64,000 nucleotides of DNA from Glaucostegus cemiculus. Taxonomy: Eukaryota. The stretch spans positions 2,976,001-3,040,000 of the forward strand of contig CDPCPM010000021.1 in assembly GCA_976551045.1 (NCBI GenBank), written 5' to 3'. Below are positions 2,623-61,382 of the stretch, piece after piece. Position numbers and translations under genes: made by a program. The number at the start of each line of letters is the position of its first letter. Within the stretch, counting starts at the first letter, position 1. The notes beneath the pieces are model-generated. The model did no database searches. It saw only the letters and a program-made list of their open reading frames with translations, and was not told where the DNA came from.

Positions 2623-3582
2623 CTTCAGAACAGTTCAATCCAATGTATGGTCTGAAACATTCACATCTGTAGTTGGTCAACAAATCAATACATTGACCCC
2701 TGCTCTGGCACGGGTCCCTCTGGCACCAGCCAGTCTTGCTGCACCCTGGTTTCACATTCAGCGCTGAATCAACCAAAAGAGTGTCCACGTCTATTACTTC
2801 TGACTCCACTGTCACGTCCTGAAGGCAACCGATAAAATGAGGCCAGGTCTGGGGCTGGGTACCACCTGGAAAATTTCCATAGTCATCCTCTATGCCCCCA
2901 AAGAATATGTTTTCAAATGCAGATGCAAGTTGGCCACTCTCCATCCCTACAAACTTCAGGATCGTGCATTCTCCTGAACAAGAATCGTCCAGGAGTTTGA
3001 CAGAAAAGTGACTCCTGAATGTCACTTCCACAGTGTGCCAGTCTCCGTCACTTACATTCTTAAAAATCTCAAGAGCGGCAACCAGTTCATTGCTTATTTG
3101 CAGAGATGCAGATAAATGCCCATTGTGTATTTCCAGTTTCATAAATGTTTCTCTGTTCCCTCTATGGAAAATAAGTGCATTGGACAGCAGAGTTCTACAC
3201 CTTAGGAATATGTGATAAGGAAGTTTATTTGTCGAGTCCTCATTTTTCTTAGTAAGTGATGTTTTAAAATGAAGATAGCCACTGATAGCAAAAGAAAATG
3301 TAGTTGATAGTTGACAGTTCAAACCAATGTAGCCATTAGCACAGCGGCAATGGTGCCTGTGTTGTGAATCTATCAGGTAAGGGATGCATGTTGCTTTGTT
3401 CTGGCATTCATGGTTCTCACATCCAGTCAGAATGTCTGTACAGTTCTGGCCTCCATAAAATATCCCCTGCGCATTGCCTGTTGGGCAGTGACAAACGTAA
3501 CCCTGCAGGGTATTCTGGCATGTTCCTCCATTTTGACAAGGGCTTGAGTCACACTCGTTAATATCCATCTCACAGTGCGAAC
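2623..3582 (-). CDS. CRB1: CRB1 exon 6 (two EGFs, laminin-G domain 1, EGF)
   Basis: Inside ORF 2615-3691. Acceptor tttcttttcaag|GT, donor GAAG|GTAAAT, 960 nt, phase 1-1. Motifs FYGGQNC, SDGDWHTVEV, AFENIFFGG, FIGCLQD and LNVKPGC…PCQSRGQC match CRB1 better than CRB2. Human exon recalled as 957 nt. Confidence 0.95.
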
Positions 3583-4765: not shown

Positions 4766-4814
4766 CTGCGACAACCATCATAAAAATGGAAGCCTTAAGA
4801 ACTGATAATACCAT
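4766..4814 (-). CDS. CRB1: Putative alternative first coding exon (CRB1-B / exon 5c-like), signal peptide MVLSVLKASIFMMVVA(G)
   Basis: ggagcaATGG start, 16 mostly hydrophobic codons, then G|GTAAAT donor. 49 nt phase 1, in frame with exon 6. Intron-5 position matches the mammalian CRB1-B first exon. Confidence 0.7.
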
Positions 4815-5660
4815 TGCTCCAAGAGAGATTTAAAAGGATCTGCAGCCAAATTTTTTAAAAACGAAGAAAATCTTCAACAATCCTTTAGTCTTGTGTCAGC
4901 TCAACCCCTGCTGATTGTAGTTCATTTCTCATTGTTAACTTATATCCTAATTGTACGCATTGTTCCTTTGTCTGCCATACCTGCTGACTCAGCTCATTGC
5001 TCAATGTTCTGAAAGCCAGATCAGCAAGGTTAAGCTTAAGAATTAGTCAATTCCTTGCTTACCCAACGGTCTGTCTCTGTGACCCATTTGTGCTACTCCC
5101 CACAACTATAACTAGAGTCACTGAAAAGAATATAAATAAATATTGGATTATAACTGTGGAAGAAAAACAATGTTGGAGCTAGTTCAAAATGTCACTTCTC
5201 TAGCAGTGCATTTTATCTTAAAGGCTATTTATTATTATAATCAGATTAAGTGATGTAATAGATTTTGTTGTATTATTACTTTCATTAAGTTATACATTGG
5301 TTTTAGCTGTTTTCAGTGGATTCATGTGTTCACATTGGTGCCAACCTGATGCTTTTATTTAAACTTTAAAAATGATAGTAACATGACTGCAAATACTGTG
5401 AACCATTACAAAGTTCTTTTGTGTGCTATTTTAATCCCATCACTTAAATAAGTTGGTTAACAAGTGTACAACACAGCAAAAAAGAGACAAAGGCAAAAAA
5501 CTATTCTGTCTCTAAAAGCCTCTGTTACAGATTTAAACAAGCTAAACTCTGACTTTTTAATCAGTTAAAGAAGAAATAGCCTCACTTTTCTCCACAATTT
5601 TTGATTGTTTTTAAAATCAGGAATAAAATGGCACAAAATCTACATTAATTTAGATTAAAA
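4815..5660 (-). promoter_or_regulatory. Putative photoreceptor internal promoter (Maf/NRL element plus CRX/OTX2 sites)
   Basis: TGCTGACTCAGCT at 4982-4994 (12/13 match to T-MARE), TAATCAGATTA at 5238-5248 (perfect K50 homeodomain dimer), GGATTA 5145-5150, TAATCC 5432-5437, TAATCA 5558-5563. TATA-like GATATAAG on the minus strand at 4939-4946. Confidence 0.6.
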
Positions 5661-7630: not shown

Positions 7631-7813
7631 CTGTAAATCCATGCCGACATTTACAGATGTAGCCAGAAGCATGCTCATAGCTGAAGACTACAGGCAATTC
7701 TGTAGTGTTTCCATACATGTTTTGCCAGGAGAGTTCAACACATTCCCCCCCATGTAGACAAGGATTACTGTAGCACTCATTGATATCAGTCTCACACTGT
7801 GCCCCCATAAAAC
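7631..7813 (-). CDS. CRB1: CRB1 exon 5 (EGF with Crumbs-type insert: [60 protein letters not shown])
   Basis: Inside ORF 7593-7850. Acceptor tttatccag|GT, donor ACAG|GTAACT, 183 nt, phase 1-1. The long loop in the EGF (ELS…FSY..ASGY) is typical of Crumbs proteins. Confidence 0.95.
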
Positions 7814-9753: not shown

Positions 9754-9893
9754 CTGGCCAACAATGACAAGTGTAATTTCCAGCAATATCCTGGCAGGTG
9801 GCACTATTGAGGCAGGGATGTGAAAGACAACTTGGGACGTAGACGTCACAGTGCAAACCAGTGTATCCACTGTTCACACAGTCACAGTTATAC
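9754..9893 (-). CDS. CRB1: CRB1 exon 4 ([46 protein letters not shown])
   Basis: Hand translation. Acceptor ttattgcag|G, donor CCAG|GTTTGT, 140 nt, phase 2-1. Same size as recalled human exon 4. Confidence 0.95.
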
Positions 9894-13016: not shown

Positions 13017-13241
<225 letters not shown>

Positions 13242-15770: not shown

Positions 15771-15839
15771 CCTATCTCAAATCCCCTCCCAAACATCTCT
15801 CTTGATCTCATCTAACTTTTTTCACCAAGCTTGAGGTCA

Positions 15840-16675
15840 TCTTTCACCAATAACACCACCGTTGTTGGCAGAATCTCAGATGGCAATGAGGAGGCTTACA
15901 CAACTGAGATAGATCAGCTGGTTGAGTGCTGTCACAACAACAACCTCACACTCAACGTCAGCAAGACCAAGGAATTGATTGTGGACTTCAGGAAGGAGGA
16001 GTCGGGAGAACACACACCAGTCCTCATTGACGAGTCAGCGATGGAAAGGGTGAGCAGCTTCAAGTTCCTGGGCGTCAAAATCTCAGAGGATCTATCCTGG
16101 GCCCAATACACTGATGCAATCATGAAGGCAGCATGCCAGTGGTTCTACTTCGTTAGGACTTTGAGGAGATTTGGTAGGTCAAAGATTCTTAAAAATTTCT
16201 GTAGATGTATGATGGAGACCATCCTGACTCATTGCATCACAGCCTGGTATGGAGGCTCCAATGCACAGGATTGCAAGAGGTTGCAGGGGGATATAGACAC
16301 AGCCAGCTCCATCACGGATCCTGCACTCCCACCTTCAAGGACATTTTCAAGAGGCAGTAACCCAATAAGGCGGCAGCTATCATTAAGGACCCTCACCATC
16401 CAGGATATGCCCATTTCTCATACTACCATCAAGCAGGAGGTACAGGAGCCTAAAGACCCAAACTCAATGATTCAGGAGCAGCTTCTTCCCCTCTGCCATT
16501 AGATTTCTGAATGATCCATGAACACGACCCTGACCCCATTATTCCTTTTTGCTTTGCACTATTTAATTTTGTGATTTCTATATTTTTTGTGTCTTTGCAC
16601 TGTACTGCTGCCACAAAACAACAAATTTCACGTCATATATTTCACGTCAGTGATAATAAATTTGATTCTGATCTG
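15840..16675 (+). mobile_element. Rex1/Babar LINE 3' fragment
   Basis: ORF TTVVGRISDGNEEAY…LNVSKTKELIVDFRK…FKFLGV…ETILTHCITAWYGG; tail aataaatttgattctgatctga. Confidence 0.85.
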
Positions 16676-18858: not shown

Positions 18859-19443
18859 CTGTCAAACCGGGTGGGCAGATGCAGACATACTTATCAATTT
18901 TGTTCACACAGGTGGATTCATTTCTGCAGGGTTCCGAAGCACACTCATCCACTTCAATCTCGCAGAGTCTGCCCTGGTAGCCAGGCACACAGAAGCAGGA
19001 AAATCCATTGAGCTTATCCTTGCACACAGCACCATTTTCACATGGGTTTGATGCACACTCATTCCTGTTGGTTCCGCAGTCAGTGCCAGTGTAACCTAAA
19101 GGGCAGACACAGCTATAGCCAGTGGCATTGTCCAGGCAGGTGGCACCGTTCAAGCAGGGAATGCTGGCACACTTGTTGATGTAAATTTCACAGCTGGTGC
19201 CAGCATGACCAGGAGGGCAATCACAAGAGAAGTCAGCTGTGCCCAAAGTGCTCTTGCATGTTGTGTTGTGCTGGCAGGGATGCGATTCGCAAACATCAAG
19301 CAGTTCCTCACAGTTCTTCCCCATGAAAGCCACAGGTATTTTTGGACAGTGGCAAATATAGTCATCGATAAGGTCCTCGCAGGTTGCATTGTTTTTGCAA
19401 GGGTTGGAGAAGCACTTGTTAAGAATTGCAGCAAAACATGAAC
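18859..19443 (-). CDS. CRB1: CRB1 exon 2 (EGF repeats, SCFAAILNKCFSNPC…YVCICPPGLT)
   Basis: Inside ORF 18701-19552. Acceptor ttcacttcttcag|GT, donor ACAG|GTAAAA, 585 nt, phase 1-1. Five EGF/cbEGF repeats. Human exon 2 recalled as 582 nt. Confidence 0.95.
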
Positions 19444-36766: not shown

Positions 36767-38190
36767 TAGAATCAGAATCAGTTTTATTGTCACAACCATA
36801 TACATACATGGTACGCATAGGAGCGAGATACCGTCCTCCACAGGAACACGTCTCATAAAAAAGAATAACATAACAACCAACAGAGAGACACATACACACT
36901 TGGCAGAATACACAGTACAAAACATTACCCATTAGTTCTTACATAAATAGATCTTAAAGTGAACGGGCTGGTGTCGGGCATTTAAAGTGCTGGTGCATTT
37001 CTGTGCACCTAGCATCTCCTAGTGTTAACAAAGGAAGATGGAGGGATGAGAGAGTTTGCAGTTCTTATGGCTTGCGGAAAGAAGCTATTGTTCAGCCTGG
37101 ACGTTCTTGCCCTGATACATTTAAGCCTCCTCCCTGATGGCAAAATTGTGAAGAGGTGGTGGGAGGGGTGAGAGGGGTCGGCCATTATGCTTTTGGTCTT
37201 CCTCACACAACGGTCTTTGTATATGTCTGCGAGGGATGGAAGCGAGACACCTATGATCCACTCCGCAGCCTTAACTATCTTCTGGAGGGACTTCCGCCCA
37301 GCAGCTGAGCAGCTTCCAAACCAAACAGGGATACATTGAGTTAGGATGCTCTCAATGGTCCCCCTGTAGAAGGATTTCATGACTGAGGGGTGTGGGTACG
37401 CTTTCCTCAGTCTCCGCAGGAAGTAGAGGCGTTTCTGAGCCTTCTTCGTGAGGGCCGTAATGTTAGTGGACCAGGTCAGGTCGTCGGTGATGTGCACCCC
37501 CAGGAACTTGGTGCTGCGTACTTGTTCCACAGCAGACCCGTTGATGGTCAGCGGAGCGTGCACATGATGACCCCTCCTAAAATCCACTATCATCTCCTTG
37601 GTTTTATCCACATTCAAGGAGAGGTTGTTGTCATGGCACCACACGGCTAGTTGGTTCACCTCCTCTCTATAGTCCGACTCATCGTCATTCGTAACAAGAC
37701 CCACCACTGTCGTGTCATCGGCAAATTTAACAATGCGGTTGGAGCTGAATCTGGCCTCACAGTCGTGGGTCAACAAGGTGAACAGGAGCGGACTGAGCAC
37801 ACAACCCTGAGGGGAGCCAGTGCTCAGTGTGATGGTGCTTGAGGTGTTTTCACCAATTTTGACTGACTGCGGCCTGCCAGTTAGAAAATCCAGTATCCAG
37901 TTGCAGAGAGGAGTGTTGATGCCCAGAGCGCTCAACTTCCTGATAAGCTGTTGTGGGATGATGGTATTGAAAGCGGAGCTGAAGTCAATGAATAGCAGCC
38001 GGCAGTATGAGTCCTTCTTCTCTAAGTGATGTAGTGCAGAGTGCATGGCAGAGGAGACTGCATCATCGGTGGACCTGTTTGCCCGATAAGCATACTGATG
38101 AGGATCCAAGGATGGGGGGAGGGAGGCTCTAATGTGCTTCACAACTAGCCTCTCAAAGCATTTCATAACAATCGGTGTTAGGGCTATAGC
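36767..38190 (-). mobile_element. Rex1/Babar LINE, young, 5'-truncated, RT frame intact
   Basis: Uninterrupted ORF 37009-38211 ([41 protein letters not shown]); 3' tail caataaaactgattctgattct. Confidence 0.93.
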
Positions 38191-38419
38191 TCCCTTGTCA
38201 GTTTTGAACATTAATTTAGGGATTAATGTTCAACCTCCAGGGTAAGAGTGTAGGTAACGCAAAAGGAAAATCAATAGATGGTTTCTTGGGGGGAGTGTAG
38301 AGGGTAGACAGGCACTTATGTGGCAGTTGACATTAATTCAAGGTGGTATATTGCCTTCCTCGTGTCAGGGTCAAGGATGTCACTATGGATCATCTTGAAG
38401 AGTTGAAGTACCAGAAGCT

Positions 38420-44519: not shown

Positions 44520-47400
44520 ACTCCAGGACCAACAAGTCACAGCCACTTATCTCGGAAACATGGAAAAAGGGCTGGGCTGTAGGTGAGACTGAAACAGCGT
44601 GGGTTCAAGACACCCCATTCCCAAGCATACTACTAGCTAACAGCCAGGCCATTGAGAACAAAGTTGATGAAGTAAGGGCAAGACTGACCTACCAAAAAGA
44701 ACTGAGGGAGTGTTGTGTGTTATGTCTCACCAAAACATGGCTTACATCTACTTCACCTGACTGCGCCACACAGAGGGCTTCTCAATTCACCGGATGGACT
44801 ATACAGTATCCTTGGGCAAAGTCAGAGGCAGAGGGGTCTGCTTCTTAATCAATAACTCGTGGTGCTCAGATATGACAGTCCTGGTGAGTTCCTGCTCACC
44901 CAGCTTGAAATATCTAACGGTGAAGTGCTGCCCATTACTACCTGCTACAGGACTTCACATCAGCTATTCTGACGGCAAAATACATCCTACCCCAGACAGA
45001 CATGAAGCCTGCACTCAATGAACTACAATCTGTGGTCAACAGCCTTGAAATAGGGTACCCCAAGGCCCTCTTCATCATTACAGGTGACTTCAACCAGGCC
45101 AACTTCAAGAATGAACCCAACCACCCTAGCCCATTGCTATGCAACCAAAGATGCCTACTGAGCCACCCCCCATCCTCACTTTGGTAAATCAGACCACCAG
45201 GCTGTGCTCTTTCTCCCTGCATACAAGCAGAAGCTGTAACAGGAGGATCCAGTACAGAAAGTCATACAGTGCTGGTCTAATGAAATAGATGAGATTCTAC
45301 ACGACTGTGTTGAGTCACTGACTCAAAGACTCAGCTATCAGCCTAGATGAGTATGTCACCACCATCATGGACTTTAATCAGCAAATGTGTCGATTACTGT
45401 GTACCAAAGAGGACAATCTGGGTGTTCCCAAACCGGAAACCATGGATGAACCAGGAGATCTACTTCCAACTGAAGTCTAAGACTGCAGTATTCAAATCAG
45501 GTGATGCTGACCTTTACAAGAAATCGAGATACAACCTCCGTAAAGCTATTAGAGATGCCAAGTGACAAAACTAGTCCAAAATCGAGTCCCAGACCAGCCG
45601 TCAGTTGTGGCGGTGCTTACGTGCTATAATGGGCCACAGAATGAAGTCAAGCAGCGTCGCCGACAACAGCACATCCCTTCCCAAGTGCATTCTATACACA
45701 TTTTGAACAGAAGGGGATTGGTTTGTCACCACCCACCCTGACAAACTCCAATGAACCTGAACCCACGGTCACTGTTGAGGACGCAAGATCAGTCTTCTGG
45801 AGAGTGAACCCGCAGAAAGCATCTAACCTGGACAGTGTCCCTGGCTGTGTCCTCAGATCCTGTGCAGATCAGCTGGTGTGGGTATTTGTGGGCATTTTCA
45901 ACCTCTTCCTACTTCAAATCAGAGGTTCCCACCTGCTTAAAGACCACTATCATCCCAGTACCCAAGAAAAACAAGGTAATGTGCCTTAATGACTATGGCC
46001 CGATGGCTCTGACATCCACCATCATGAAGTGCTTTGAGACACTAGTCATAGCACTCATTAATTCCAGCCTCCCAGAAAACCTCGACCCACTGCAATTCAC
46101 CTACTGTCGAAACAAGTCTACGGCAGATGCCATCTTCTTGGCCTTGCCCTCATCTCTGGAGCATCTAGGCAGTAAACACACCTACGTTACACTATTGTTT
46201 ATTGACTACAGCTCTTCCTTCAATCCTCTAATTCCAAGCAAACTTCAAGACCTGGGACTCAACACCTCCTCTACGACTGGATCCTTGACTTCCCGACCAA
46301 CAGACCACAATCAGTAAGGATAGGCAGCAACAGCATGATTATTCTCAACACTGGTGCCCCACAAGGCTGCGCCCTCAGCCCCCTAATCTACTGCCTATAC
46401 ACTCATGATAGCATGGCCATCTTCTGCACTAGCGCCATCTACAAGTTTCCAGATGATGCCACCTTAGTGGACTGTATTGCAAATAACAATGAGTCAGAGC
46501 ACAAGAGGAGATAGAAAGCATAGTGATATGGTGTCACGACAACAACCTTTCCCTCCCTGTCAGCAAAACAAAAGAGCTGGTCGTTGACTTCAGGAAAGGG
46601 GGCAGTGTACATGCTCCTGTCTGCATCAATGGGTCTGAGGTAGAGAGCTTCAACTTCCAGGAAGTGAACATCATTATTCTGGTCCAACAATGTGGATGCC
46701 ATGGCCAAGAAAGCTCACCAGCAACATTACTTCCTCAGGATGCTAAAGAAATTTGGCATATCCCCTCTGACTCTCACCAATTTTTATTGATGCACTATTG
46801 AAAGCATCCTATCTGGATGCATCACAGCCATACTAAGCTGTGATGCATCCAGATAGGATGCTTTCAATAGTGCATCAATAAAAAATTTGCTCTGCCCAGG
46901 ACTGCAAGAAACTGTAGAGAGTTGCAGACGCAGCTCAGCACATCACGTAAACCAGCCTCCCCTCCATGGACTCTGTCTATACTTCTTGCTGCCTCAGTAA
47001 ATCAGCCAGCATTTTCAAAGATCCCATCCACCTGGGACATTCTCTCATCTCCCCTCTCCCATCAGGCAGAAAATACAAAACCCAAAAAGCATGTACCACG
47101 AGGCTCAAGGACAGCTTCTGTCCCACTGTTATAAGACTATTGAATGGTTCCCTAGTATGCTAAGATGGACTGTTAACCTCACAAGCTACCTCGTTATGAC
47201 TGTCTACCTTACTGACTGACTATCTTACTGTCTACCTGCACTGCACTCTCTGTTGCTGTAACATTTTATTCTGCATTCTGTATTGTTTTACCTTGTACTA
47301 CCTCAATGCACTGTGTAATGAATTGATCTGTATGAAAGGTATGCAAGGCAAGTTTTTCCACTGTACCTCAGTACAAGTGACAATAATAAACCAATTCCAA
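44520..47400 (+). mobile_element. Rex1/Babar LINE, near full-length, degraded (endonuclease + RT)
   Basis: Remnants LLAN..AIENKVDE…[52 protein letters not shown]…TTRLKDSF. Confidence 0.88.
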
Positions 47401-48897: not shown

Positions 48898-49696
48898 TAT
48901 CTTCACAGTTCAGATTAATCAATCAATAGACAATTTCACTCTTCATAAATCTCCAACAATTACTTTAAGCCTTCTTTCAATGTCATTGAAATATGCTGAA
49001 GTCAAAAATATTTGAAGTACTTTGTGCAAAATGAAATATTCTGCGAAAGTACATTTTTTCTTGGTCTAGTTTAATAATACGTTTAATATTTTTTAAGTTA
49101 TGGAACTAACAACAAATAAATACACTAAAAATCTGTTTTTAAAATGTTTAGAAAACAAAGTGTCAAAATGTTCGTGAAAATCAGTCCTACAATAAAGACA
49201 GATTGACTGGCTTCGGTCCCAAAAATGTTCCAGCAATGGGTTCTCAAGTTTTTCCGACTGTAACATTGGAAGTCGAGCCTGACATTTCAAGCACCATTTC
49301 CTTAAAACAGCCTGATTAGCTTTTTAAATGGTATTTGCAATGCAGGTTTAGAGATCCTGAACTAGGGAGATGCCAGCAAAGCCAGATCCCGAAAACAAGT
49401 GTGGAGAAAGCAAACAAAAAAAAAGAAATCTGCCGCCTCATTGCAGTTGAGGTGGAAATGAAGGGTCAACAGAAGGAGATGTGCCAGAGGAAAAGGAACA
49501 AATACTGATGATAATTAAGAACTAGTAAGGTTACTCGGAGTGGGGGGGGGGGAAGGGTATGGGGGGTGGGGGGTGGAGGGGAAAACAAAGGAAAATGAAA
49601 AATAAAAAAATCAGGGTTAAAGTAACATTTTCCAGAATTAAACGATAAAAGGGTCTCATCTGATTTCTTTCAAGAAATTGCAAATGACAAGCGTTT

Positions 49697-50322
49697 TCCC
49701 TCAGTTATGAAAACTTTCTATAGAGGGACCATTGAGAGCATCTTAACCCAATGTATCACTGTCTGTTTTGGAGGTTTCTCAGCTGCTGGACGGAAGTCCC
49801 TCCAGAGGATAGTTTGGGCTGCGGAAAGGATCATAGGTGTCTCTCTTCCATCCATTGCAGACATATACAAGGACCGTTGTTTTAGGAAGACCAAGTATAT
49901 AATGGCGGATCCTTCTCACCCCTCCCATCATCTCTTTACAATTTTGCCATCTGGAAGGAGGCTCAAATGTATCGGGGCCAGAACGACCAGGCTGTGCAAT
50001 AGCTTCTTTCCGCAAGCCATCAGAACTGTGAACTCTCTCATTCTTCCAGCTACTTTGTTAACACTAAGGGATGCTAGGTGCACAGAAATGCACCAGCACT
50101 TTAAATGCCCACCACCAGCTCGTTCACTTTAAAACTATTTATTTAACCTGCCATATTTAATTTAAACTTCCGCAGTTTTAATTTTTTTTTTGTTCAGTGT
50201 GTCTCTTCTGTTTGTTATTTATTGGGACGTGCACCTGAGGAGGACGGTATCGCGCTCCTATGCATACTATGCCTGTATATGGTTGTGACGATAAAACTGA
50301 GTCTGATTCCGGATTCTGATTC
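49697..50322 (+). mobile_element. Rex1/Babar LINE 3' fragment, same young family as 36767-38190
   Basis: [20 protein letters not shown]…SFFPQAIRT is near-identical to the C-terminus of ORF 37009-38211; tail ataaaactgagtctgattc…ctgattct. Confidence 0.9.
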
Positions 50323-52052: not shown

Positions 52053-52131
52053 TTTGGGTGACGACGAAGAGCAACAGGCGCAGGGAAAGGGTGGGCTTTG
52101 AGGCCACTCTTGAAGTGTTACACAAAGCCAT
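52053..52131 (-). CDS. CRB1: CRB1 coding exon 1 (signal peptide, MALCNTSRVASKPTLSLRLLLFVVTQ + phase-1 base)
   Basis: Minus strand reads aaaatcATGG (good Kozak), 26 codons with a hydrophobic LSLRLLLFVV core, then A|GTAAGT consensus donor. The 79 nt phase-1 exon joins exon 2 in frame (…TQ-S-SCFAAILNKC). It lies in a CpG-richer region and starts MAL like mammalian CRB1. Confidence 0.85.
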
Positions 52132-53505: not shown

Positions 53506-55215
53506 TAATGCCCTAAATGGGTACACCTTGAGTATCAAACAACACTTGAATTTTCGTTATTCTCTATTTTAGGAGCTTCACTCCCTTTTGCACTTACCAA
53601 ATTAAGTAAATATATGACTAACCCAATCAATAAGCATACATTACGAATATGGTTTCAATTTTGTAAATTCTTTGGATTGACTAAATTTGTTTTGTCAAGT
53701 CCTATACAATCTAATTTTTTTTCAACCATCTAGACTAGATACAGCTTTTTCCTTATGGAAAAGGAAGGGAATAGTATGCTTTCATGATCTATTCATTGGT
53801 AACTGTTTAGCATCTCCACGGCTGTTCCTCAAATTTCCTCTGTCGCCTGCCGGTGAGGTGAAGAGGCTTCCCTCGAGATCCAGCTGTCACCCCGGGCACA
53901 GTCAGAGGAAACTCGAGCCGTTTCTTCATCTGTTGCCTCACTGGGTTGAATTGTTGGAACACCCTTCCCAGCTGTGCGGTTGGAAACCTGTTCAGGAGCC
54001 CGAAGACCCCGCGGTCCAGCTTTTGAACAGCTAATAAATATAATTTACCTAGATCACATTTTTTTCGATATTTGCAGATTAGAAATTTTTTAAAAGCTGT
54101 TATACCCTCCTTTCCATTTATTATAAAGACGAAATCATTGATAAAATTTTAGGTTTTAATCCCCATCAGAAGGGCTCGACAGCAATAATTTATGATTTAA
54201 TTATGAAAATACGGTCAGATTCACTGGACAAAATTAAAAATGATTGGGAAAGTGAACTCCAGATTTCTATATCTATAGAGACTTGGAAGAAAATTCTTCA
54301 TTCAGATAATACATCCTCAATGTGTGACAGACACTCATTGATACAGTTTAAAGTTGTGCACAGGGCCTATATGTCCAAAGATAAGCTAGCTCGTTTTTAT
54401 GACCGTATAAAACCTATATGTGACAGATGTAAATCGAACGTGGCTTCTTTGTCGCATATGTTCTGGTCCCGTCCTTATTTGGAAAAATATTGGAAAGACA
54501 TTTTTAATATTATTTCAGATGTATTGAAGATCGATTTACAACCTCACCCTATTACTGCAATTTTTGGATTACCATGGATAAAGTCTGGCCATTTACCTGC
54601 TTCTGCTAACCGTATGATTGCTTTTGTTACATTAGTGGCCAAACGAAAACAAACCATTCTGCTTAAATGGAAGGATCCAATACCCCCTACCACCTTTCAA
54701 TGGTTCTCTCAAACTTTATCATGTCTTAATTTGGAAAAAATTAGGAGCGGTACTGTTGATTCTTTGCTTAAATTTGAAGCTATTTGGAGTCCATTTATTC
54801 AATACTTTCATATGATGTAGTTTCCCCTTCTATAACTTTTTTTTAAATTCAGAGAAAGGGAGCTGACAACATCATATTGTTCTATTTCTATTGAAAATTT
54901 TACCCCAGTTTTTTTTTCCATGTTTTTTTTAAAATTCATTTTTGGTTTAATTTACTCTATATTATTATGATTTTTTAAATTGATTTGGTTTTTTTTTTCT
55001 AATTATATAACAAATCTTTTTCTTTTCTATCTTTTACATTACACTTATGAACCGAGAGATTGTTGGAACTTTCTTTTATATATGTCATACTTTATTGCTT
55101 TTTTTATGATTACCTACGATTGTTACTTGATATTTCTATAATACATGTGTAAACATTGTTGTTATATATCTTAACCTGTATTGATTTGTTATCAATAAAA
55201 GATTGAAAAAGAAAA
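53506..55215 (+). mobile_element. L1/Tx1-type LINE, 5'-truncated, with poly(A) and 15-bp TSD
   Basis: ORF2 C-terminus (WESEL…IQFKVVHR…CDRCK…SHMFWS zinc knuckle), T-rich 3' UTR, AATAAA at ~55194, A tail, TSD AAAAATTACAAAATA at 53491-53505 and 55216-55230. Confidence 0.9.
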
Positions 55216-58830: not shown

Positions 58831-61382
58831 CAAGCAGAATCATTAGCTGAATTTTGTGAACTCATACCAGTTGTTCCTTAAAAACAGAAAATGCTGAAAA
58901 CATTCAGTTGGTCAGGCAGTATCTGTGAAAAGTGAAACAGACTTAATGTTTCAGGCTGAAGATCCTTTCTCAGAACCCTTATTTGACCTGAAATGTTAAC
59001 TCTGTTTCTCTCTCCACAAATGTTGACTGACCCGCTGGGTGTTTACAGCATTTTCTGTTTTCATTTCAGATTTCCAGCATCTGTAATTTTCTGATTTTCC
59101 TTCATGAGGATTTTCTTAATGATCAACTTCAATCAATCACTTTTAGAGTAGAGAGTTACATTAGATATTAACAAAATTCCATCAAAGACCAGCTGGGAAT
59201 GTATGAGGGATCAATCTGCTGAAGCTGTAATGAATATATGGGTGCCAAAATAGGAGTACCAAATCAGGAATGCCCAAGTGTGTTGAAACACATGAGACTA
59301 GCAGGATAGCCAAAACAGGAGTGCTGATACAGCACTTCCCAAAACAGTTATATTCAGTCAAGGGTGCTGAAATATGACAGTCAAAACAGGAGTTCCACAA
59401 CAAGACAGCCCTAAAAGGAGTGTTCAAAATGTATCGGCAAATGGCATTATCCAGAAGACTGTCCTACAGGCTTGCTGAAATGTGAGTATAGGAATGTGTA
59501 CACACAGAACAGAAACGGGTGCTGAAATTGGATCACTCAAAAAGCAGTGTCCACACAGAACAGAAACAAGAACATCTAAACAGAAGTATCCAATCAACAG
59601 TGCTGAAACAGGAGAGCAGAAACTGAAGGACTGCAGAATCTAGAGTACCTAAAGTGTTTTGGTTTTGTTCATTGGTGGTTGTTAATACTCATGATCTTGG
59701 ATCTCCGATGTTATCCAAGCATTATGGTACAAAATCCCATTGGCATAGCTTGAATCAACATTTGTCTGAAATAAAAGAAACTTGCTGAAATGCAGACACA
59801 GAAGTCATTTTAAATGTAATACCATGGGGAGTGAAAGACAAATATTGAGTTCAGTGATGTTGTACACAGAGAAGGCATGAAGACGTGAACTTCTGTAAAT
59901 AGTTTATCAAAGAAAGCGCACGGAAATCCTATCCACCGATCCCCTTGCAAAACACTTTTCTGTGGGAATCTTTATTTCATGTGATCCAGAAGCTTTTTGG
60001 ATTAATTCTCCCTGTAAATGAAGTTAATATTCCTGCTGCTTGTTATATGGCATTTGCCTCTATTTAGATTACTCTAAAACTCAAATTTTAGACCTTATCC
60101 ACTAAATGAAACCATATATCTATTAATGTTTTAACAAGTGTTAAAAAAGAAATTTGAACATCACTTGACAAAGGCAAAGACAATGGCTGCAGCCTACTGG
60201 TCAGTAGGTATGTCCTGATAGTGCAATGGAGAGATGCAGTACTGAGATGTTGATTAATTCTTGTAAAATCCTACATCTCTAAATCTGAAACATTTCTACA
60301 TCTCAATATCCTGCTGTGAGGAAAAAAATTCAAAAGACTGATGTAAGAAGGGATAACCTTACACAGCAAATCAAACTACAACATATTGTAGTAGCTCATC
60401 ATATGCTTCAGTTACCTAAAAACCTAAATTAATGTAACATGCTACTGTACTGTTATTACGATTTTCATTATAATAATACTAGCTACAATTAAAAGGCAGT
60501 TTCAGTTCTGCACATCTGATCATTGTGTTGACTTGTTAATCAGATCATTTATTGCCAGGTGAAGCAAAATGCAGTGTCATTTTATTAAAATTATTCAAAT
60601 ATTATATAAAATATTATATTCATTTAATATATTTCAAGTGACAGCTATTAGTGGAATAATATACCAATTCTGAAACAGCCATGATTTGTATTACCAATGT
60701 TATTTACTTAAGATTGTAACAATCCCCATATCCCCTAAAATCAGGAAACAAACTATACTTGAAATAGTGTTGATAGTATAAAATAATAATGTATATTTTA
60801 TGAGATTAGAAATGACTGCAGTATCAAAGTTATTTAATCTGTACATTTTAATAATATTAAATCAGGTCACTTATAGTCTTGTTTCACTGTTTCATACATA
60901 TTGGTAAAGAACCTTGATCTTTGCAAATAAATATGCATTAGGTGGAACCATTTGACTGACAATTTGTATGACCACTTGAGTTTTTTCAGCTGGATAGTGC
61001 AAGGTCAGAACCTACTAAAAATCTCCATATCGTCTGCAGTGAGATGTACACAACCAGCAAAGGATCACTGTTCTCAAAATAGGATGAACCTCCACAATGC
61101 ACATTGCTTCCTCTTTATGGTTGAAGGATAACGGCTGAGAAGAAAATAATATTGTTAAGTTGCACTTATTTTTCATGTAAAGATCATGATTCCAGTGTTT
61201 AAAGTTGTGACACACATTAATATAGGCTAAAAAGATTCAATTGTAATACCGTCAGGCAGAATAATCAAATAATTGAAAACCTTAAATTAAAAAATCACCT
61301 CCTGAAGCCCAATTAATTTGATAAATTATGCAGTGTTATAGTGATTGGCTATTAGTGATCAGGTTTTCTATTTATATCAAGC

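Follow-up and report, generated by a model that had tools for sequence, protein, structure and literature searches.

A candidate first exon for a CRB1-B form in intron 5 of the CRB1 gene of the ray Glaucostegus cemiculus

Intron 5 of the CRB1 gene of a ray contains a short coding stretch that, by analogy with the known CRB1-B forms, is probably the first coding exon of a ray CRB1-B, transcribed from a photoreceptor promoter within the intron and spliced to exon 6. An ATG in good context, a hydrophobic leader of 16 residues, a strong phase-1 donor, CRX- and MAF-type motifs within 440 nt upstream, open exons 6-11 and the alternative tail are directly seen in the DNA. CRB1 is a blindness gene, and CRB1-B, its main isoform in the retina, is a candidate for gene therapy. 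If the reading is correct, the intact B system of the ray would date CRB1-B at least to the ancestor of jawed vertebrates.

The host gene

The stretch of DNA analysed, here called the window, is 64 kb long (C21:2976001-3040000). Exon mapping and background scans covered the window plus 200 kb of adjacent DNA (264 kb in total). The host gene is the CRB1 of a ray: in sequence comparison its exon 6 is 81% identical to that of Hypanus sabinus CRB1, 78% to that of Narcine and 60-73% to CRB1 of sharks, skate and chimaera. CRB2 was found separately, on contig C52 of the same genome, CRB1 being on contig C21. All exons of CRB1 were mapped in order (12/12), 1A and 2-6 within the window and 7-12 past its low end. 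Intron 5 extends from 7630 to 3583 and comprises 4,048 nt. The exons in the window, including the candidate, are:

52053..52131, minus strand: CRB1-A exon 1, coding part (canonical; signal peptide, phase 1)
18859..19443, minus strand: CRB1 exon 2, 585 nt
13018..13213, minus strand: CRB1 exon 3, 196 nt
9754..9893, minus strand: CRB1 exon 4, 140 nt
7631..7813, minus strand: CRB1 exon 5, 183 nt
4766..4814, minus strand: candidate CRB1-B first exon, coding part (5c equivalent); 16 codons plus 1 nt, predicted signal peptide, donor CAG/GTAAAT
2623..3582, minus strand: CRB1 exon 6, 960 nt, encoding EGF repeats and the first laminin G domain; common to the A and the predicted B forms

Introns 1 and 2 also harbour LINE-like open frames (37012-38229 on the minus strand; 15816-16499, 45808-46314, 49626-50129 and 54083-54817 on the plus strand), which look like remnants of LINE reverse transcriptases.

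The candidate exon

On the minus strand, positions 4814..4766 read ATG, 15 codons and a G, i.e., MVLSVLKASIFMMVVA-G, followed by GTAAAT. An earlier note on this DNA had described a 49-nt, ATG-initiated, hydrophobic phase-1 exon with a G/GTAAAT donor 1.18 kb before exon 6, and that description is exact. The acceptor of exon 6 (ttttcaag/GT at 3582) lies 1,183 nt downstream. Conceptual splicing of the candidate to exon 6 joins G and GT, and the frame continues as Gly-Ser-His-Cys-Glu-Met-Asp. The start context, gcaATGG, offers a purine at -3 and a G at +4, which are both Kozak positions. The donor agrees with the consensus at 8/9 positions, and its intronic hexamer is the same as that of the exon 6 donor. 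The hydrophobic core of the leader scores 2.56, and small residues occupy, as judged by eye, positions -3 and -1 of the predicted cleavage site.

Of course, a short ATG..GT stretch could arise by chance in AT-rich intron DNA. The B tail described below would then be used with exon 1A only, and there would be no internal promoter here. We consider this unlikely. The 264 kb contain, on both strands, 1627 stop-free ATG..GT phase-1 mini-exons of 14-20 codons. Four of them pass a filter that demands a donor with at least 8/9 consensus positions and a hydrophobic 8-residue stretch of at least 2.0, the thresholds having been fixed with the candidate already known. Three other stretches in 528 kb pass the same filter, a point for chance; against chance, only about 0.02 are expected in an intron of 4,048 nt such as intron 5. 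Five of the 1627 lie in this intron, and only the one starting at 4814 passes the filter; it is also the only one of the five that combines such a donor and core with both Kozak positions. A repeat origin of the exon was considered and rejected: the segment 4700-5400 finds a single match in this genome, and therefore no repeat is detected.

The upstream region as a candidate promoter

Upstream of the candidate exon the following motifs are found:

4982..4994, unstranded: MAF-type palindrome, 12/13 positions agree with TGCTGANTCAGCA; it lies roughly 180 nt upstream of the ATG (consensus from PMC5335693)
5021..5038, unstranded: overlapping TAAGCT pair adjoining a TGCTGA half-site
5080..5085, minus strand: GGGTCA nuclear-receptor half-site, not a full RORE
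5145..5150, minus strand: TAATCC K50 homeodomain (CRX/OTX2) site
5238..5248, unstranded: paired homeodomain dimer site TAAT-N3-ATTA (motif from PMC5335693)

In the available part of PMC5335693, the TAAT-N3-ATTA form is described as repressive in reporter assays. The MAF palindrome was first spotted by eye; 12/13 matches of this type occur twice in the 64-kb window, versus 0.38 expected, and three times in 264 kb. The TAAGCT hexamer is a variant of the CRX motif. A full RORE, a MEF2 site and a forward TATA box were not found upstream of the candidate exon.

When tiles were ranked by clusters of such motifs, i.e., by sequence and not by activity, the 500 nt upstream of the candidate exon came first among 527, and fourth (4/527) when the MAF class was omitted. 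The motif classes were those named in the accessible text of PMC5335693. This cluster sits directly upstream of the exon and is independent of the exon's own features, which argues against a chance origin. The 500 nt upstream of the canonical exon 1A are devoid of a CRX motif. The two rhodopsin-family matches of the genome served as opsin controls: the rhodopsin-type gene displayed two TAATCC and one TGCTGA, and in the second, a green-type gene, no motif scored.

Which factor would bind the palindrome may be guessed from a relative. According to the available text of bioRxiv 10.1101/2025.07.30.667746, the little skate assembly is without a distinct nrl, and mafb is expressed in the retina. Another large Maf is, therefore, a likelier binder than NRL.

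Two side observations may be added. The second 12/13 MAF-type match of the window (59322-59334) lies among five TGCTGA half-sites, some 7 kb upstream of exon 1A; this cluster is possibly an enhancer or a repeat. Further, five short blocks (TGACT, TTAAGC, CTGATC, GCTT and AGA) at 5050-5010 on the minus strand follow each other, as seen by eye, in the order known from the mouse Crb1-B 5' exon; their distance to the ATG is about 170 nt in the mouse versus about 225 nt in the ray.

Six upstream ATGs are found within 280 nt, one of them, at 4978, in strong context; all of them open short frames that end before the main ATG. They could suppress translation, as might be expected of a decayed or minor remnant, i.e., a homolog of exon 5c that is no longer the main retinal start in rays. 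That parts of the B system can decay is suggested by the CRB2 gene of the same genome, where a copy of the B tail is frameshifted (see below). Yet the ATG, its Kozak context, the donor, the almost perfect MAF palindrome and the tail of CRB1 are all intact, and we therefore regard such a remnant as quite improbable. Hardly probable at all is a real exon in another layout. It could be a poison cassette behind exon 5 (74 nt, acceptor at 4839, with a frameshift) or a second exon behind a non-coding first exon that ends at CAG/GTATGG near 4980, thereby skipping four upstream ATGs. An AG at 4840 and a 7/9 donor-like site at 4980 are present, but the 4839 acceptor has 8/17 pyrimidines, as compared with 16 at the acceptor of exon 6; each of the 11 upstream YAG options, read on from exon 5, runs into a stop within 20 codons; and the mouse B transcript has 7 exons. 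An in-frame internal cassette was rejected as well.

The B tail and the predicted product

An exon 11b-like 3' end, for which the earlier note had pointed downstream, indeed exists and is intact. Some 25 kb downstream, the frame of exon 11 runs on past the donor into a tail of 36 residues (C21:2956059-2955949), with AATAAA 23 and 268 nt past the stop. The tail is identical to that of man in 29/36 residues, to that of the coelacanth in 32/36 and to that of the thorny skate in 36/36. Exon 6, in contrast, is only 43.5% identical between ray and man. The B tail is far more constrained (81% to human) than the ectodomain (44%), a difference in sequence conservation that points to a conserved partner of the tail. 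The tail reaches a moderate hydropathy (1.62 as the best mean over 19 residues). A membrane span of the tail therefore rests on the prediction and the membrane fractionation given in the available part of PMC7335077.

The predicted B open reading frame comprises seven exons of 49, 960, 551, 166, 901, 123 and 238 nt, is stop-free and encodes 995 residues; some of its exon boundaries were placed where they agreed best with a devil-ray model.

Transcription, splicing, cleavage, cell type and a role at junctions we infer for the ray CRB1-B from the mouse. CRX/OTX2 together with a large Maf would open the intron 5 promoter, the latter being MafB or MafA rather than NRL if the ray resembles the little skate. 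In photoreceptors the transcript would start at this promoter, and its first exon would be spliced to exon 6. The leader would act as a signal peptide and be cleaved near Ala16/Gly17. The resulting 995-residue product would be devoid of the nine N-terminal EGF repeats and would carry the B tail in place of the ERLI tail that binds FERM and PDZ domains. By analogy with the mouse, it may be a cell-surface protein that supports the junctions that photoreceptors form with Muller cells.

Leaders of bony vertebrates

A protein search limited to 363-1157 residues yielded 72 proteins. Many of the 72 are teleost "crumbs homolog 1-like" models with a length of about 1010 residues, in which a short leader is joined to the EGF of exon 6; the same holds for models from sturgeon (P0158), macaque (P0259) and rattlesnake (P0355). 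The B tail ends 19 of the 29 teleost B-form models checked.

Thirty bony-vertebrate B-type leaders were picked by hand, models with doubtful starts being dropped. The set consists of 28 teleost entries, one sturgeon and one macaque, and its leaders are therefore not independent. There are 16 residues before the junction in 23/30, a Gly at the junction in 26/30 and an Ala preceding it in 24/30. The ray leader has all three, and this agreement in length and in the terminal Ala-Gly speaks against chance. Its hydrophobicity (2.56) falls within the range of 1.59-3.59 spanned by the 30.

At the level of individual residues, however, no similarity of the ray leader to other B leaders emerges from the profiles, which is a point for chance. 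Its rank among the 1627 mini-exons is 52 with one profile and 229 with another, and 28% and 53%, respectively, of its shuffles score equally well against the B leaders. The macaque control would rank 476 on the teleost profile; the power of the test is therefore low.

In many teleosts a "crumbs homolog 1-like" model represents nothing but the B form (P0178-P0217, P0300-P0313), and in several of these B-only models the orphan cysteine that follows the leader has been lost. Such models could represent a genome-duplication copy that kept the B isoform alone.

Gene models of cartilaginous fishes

The gene models, too, can be cited in favour of chance. A B-type leader starts none of the 45 cartilaginous-fish CRB1 models among the matches listed (0/45), these being drawn from several searches, of which the main one contributed 120 of its 525 matches, and from clusters, one of them represented by 15 of its 19 members. 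In 43/45 exon 6 is reached at residue 330 or later; 2/45 gave no exon 6 alignment. The shark and ray models among the matches listed thus seem to lack the candidate exon. Five of the 45 carry the B tail joined to a long N-terminus, and the tail therefore does not need the candidate exon. Such a combination of A-type start and B tail also exists in human P82279-2, as the chance explanation would have it.

Other searches contributed little. A metagenome scan gave 69 loci, two of which match exon 6 strongly, with 731 nt (L022) and 100 nt (L023) of upstream DNA; the 731 nt at L022 are free of a B-like leader. A search for short relatives produced nine matches, the sole CRB1 match being a skate exon-6 fragment without a leader. 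A B-tail search with an EGF-containing query was swamped by multi-EGF proteins, and 2/149 new matches end in a B tail, both nearer to CRB1. Many shark CRB1 models end in a CRB2/3-type tail.

Among the titles listed from the openly accessible literature, none refers to CRB1-B in cartilaginous fish or to a B-tail copy in CRB2; the alignment in Fig. 7b of PMC7335077 could include a shark. The available portion of the main text of bioRxiv 10.64898/2026.08.05.743134 mentions neither shark nor zebrafish nor evolution.

CRB2 and the age of the B layout

In the CRB2 gene of the ray, a B-tail copy lies within the intron that follows the last EGF exon (C52:6210392-6210273, minus strand; L097). It starts with 11/15 identical residues, shifts by one base in or near a T run and continues with 9/15. 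The score of the intron-only DNA was reached by 0/1000 shuffles. The shift may be either a true frameshift or an assembly error.

Both CRB1 and CRB2 end in a tandem pair of transmembrane-ERLI last exons (C21:2920290-2919640 and C52:6200970-6199578, minus strand), which come in the same order in both genes: first the CRB2/3-type, then the CRB1-type. The B-tail copy in CRB2 and the same twin last exons imply that the 3' modules predate the duplication that gave rise to CRB1 and CRB2. This duplication belongs to the early genome duplications of the vertebrates. The findings point to an origin of the B system before it. A CRB1-type tail is found at the end of five bird CRB2-like models and of one partial model.

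The mini-exon filter was run on CRB2 as an intended negative control, and the result was positive. The intron before its EGF-plus-laminin-G exon contains a hydrophobic ATG..G/GTGAGT phase-1 mini-exon (C52:6233930-6233873, minus strand); about 0.08 such mini-exons are expected by chance in this intron of 13.5 kb, as calculated by hand from the rate of the CRB1 scan. There is no strong motif cluster at this mini-exon. Preceding the equivalent exon in CRB2 are 11 EGF repeats (66-67 Cys), the number missing from zebrafish Crb2b-sf. The mini-exon is a candidate for a Crb2-sf first exon. Behind this positive result there may be a shared feature of greater age or else a higher rate of false positives.

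The whole B layout could be older than CRB1 itself: a crumbs gene before the duplication would have possessed an internal first exon ahead of the laminin-G exon, a membrane tail formed by read-through of the last EGF exon and two tandem ERLI last exons. We consider the arguments for and against this proposal evenly balanced. Its 3' part is visible in the ray genome; the ancestral internal first exon is a reconstruction. If true, mammalian CRB1-A and CRB1-B, zebrafish Crb2b-sf, CRB2 and CRB3 would be subsets of one ancestral modular gene, which rays would still display almost whole. The tail copy in CRB2 makes B-like CRB2 ends worth seeking in other vertebrates.

A CRB3-like unit of 118 residues is nested in intron 11 of CRB1, its first exon at C21:2936131 and its last at 2920072. 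Two sharks (P0148, P0153) have it under the annotation crb3-like, and in some RefSeq CRB1 models it is merged with CRB1. Unnamed Logan proteins (P0344-P0346) match the unit and lie on contigs of 1.4-1.5 kb, which points to a spliced mRNA.

Comparison with known short forms of CRB1 and CRB2

The identification as CRB1-B proposed in the earlier note is supported by position, phase, length, hydrophobicity, the photoreceptor motifs upstream and the intact exon-11b-type tail. Its novelty had been overrated. Crb1-B is present in the zebrafish retina according to Ray et al. 2020 (PMC7335077, available part), and teleost, sturgeon, snake and macaque models carry the leader; cartilaginous fish are therefore one node deeper. 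On sequence grounds, the ray candidate would likely extend CRB1-B, known from mammals and zebrafish, to the cartilaginous fishes. As to the dating to the jawed-vertebrate ancestor, an intact B system in a ray would fit at least that age, but the date may be too young, CRB2 having a paralogous B tail.

The closest parallel is CRB1-B of mouse and man (exons 5c-11b), which shares with the predicted ray form an internal first exon before exon 6, a short leader ending in a split-codon Gly, seven exons, a length of about 1000 residues and the intron-11 read-through tail (29/36 human identity). The available part of Supplementary Data 1 of PMC7335077 gives for mouse Crb1-B a leader of 17 residues plus Gly and a 7-exon reading frame of 1003 residues. 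The mouse leader, at 17 residues versus 16, exhibits no significant residue similarity to that of the ray, and the ray tail ends 5 residues earlier than that of mouse and man. Human CRB1 isoform 2 (P82279-2, P0247, 1376 residues) has the same intron-11 read-through tail; unlike the predicted ray form, it begins with exon 1A and retains every N-terminal EGF repeat.

The teleost "protein crumbs homolog 1-like" B models (e.g., P0178, P0181, P0184) resemble the ray in their modal leader of 16 residues plus Gly with an Ala before it. They usually have a Trp-x-x-Leu-Leu core, which the ray leader lacks. In sturgeon P0158 the leader is joined to the exon-6 EGF, as in the ray candidate, but the tail is of the A type.

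Finally, zebrafish Crb2b-sf is, as far as the available texts go, without 11 EGF repeats (PMC12510390, PMC11129452), otherwise identical to the long form, and started in "intron 7" (PMC7044448, PMC12510390, PMC11129452). As in the predicted ray CRB1-B, an internal start drops the N-terminal EGF array. In contrast to the latter, it belongs to the paralogous gene and, since it is said to differ from the long form in nothing else, retains the ERLI tail. The Crb2b-sf start in "intron 7" compares with an equivalent intron in the ray CRB2 that follows the sixth exon, the unmapped exon 1 being counted.
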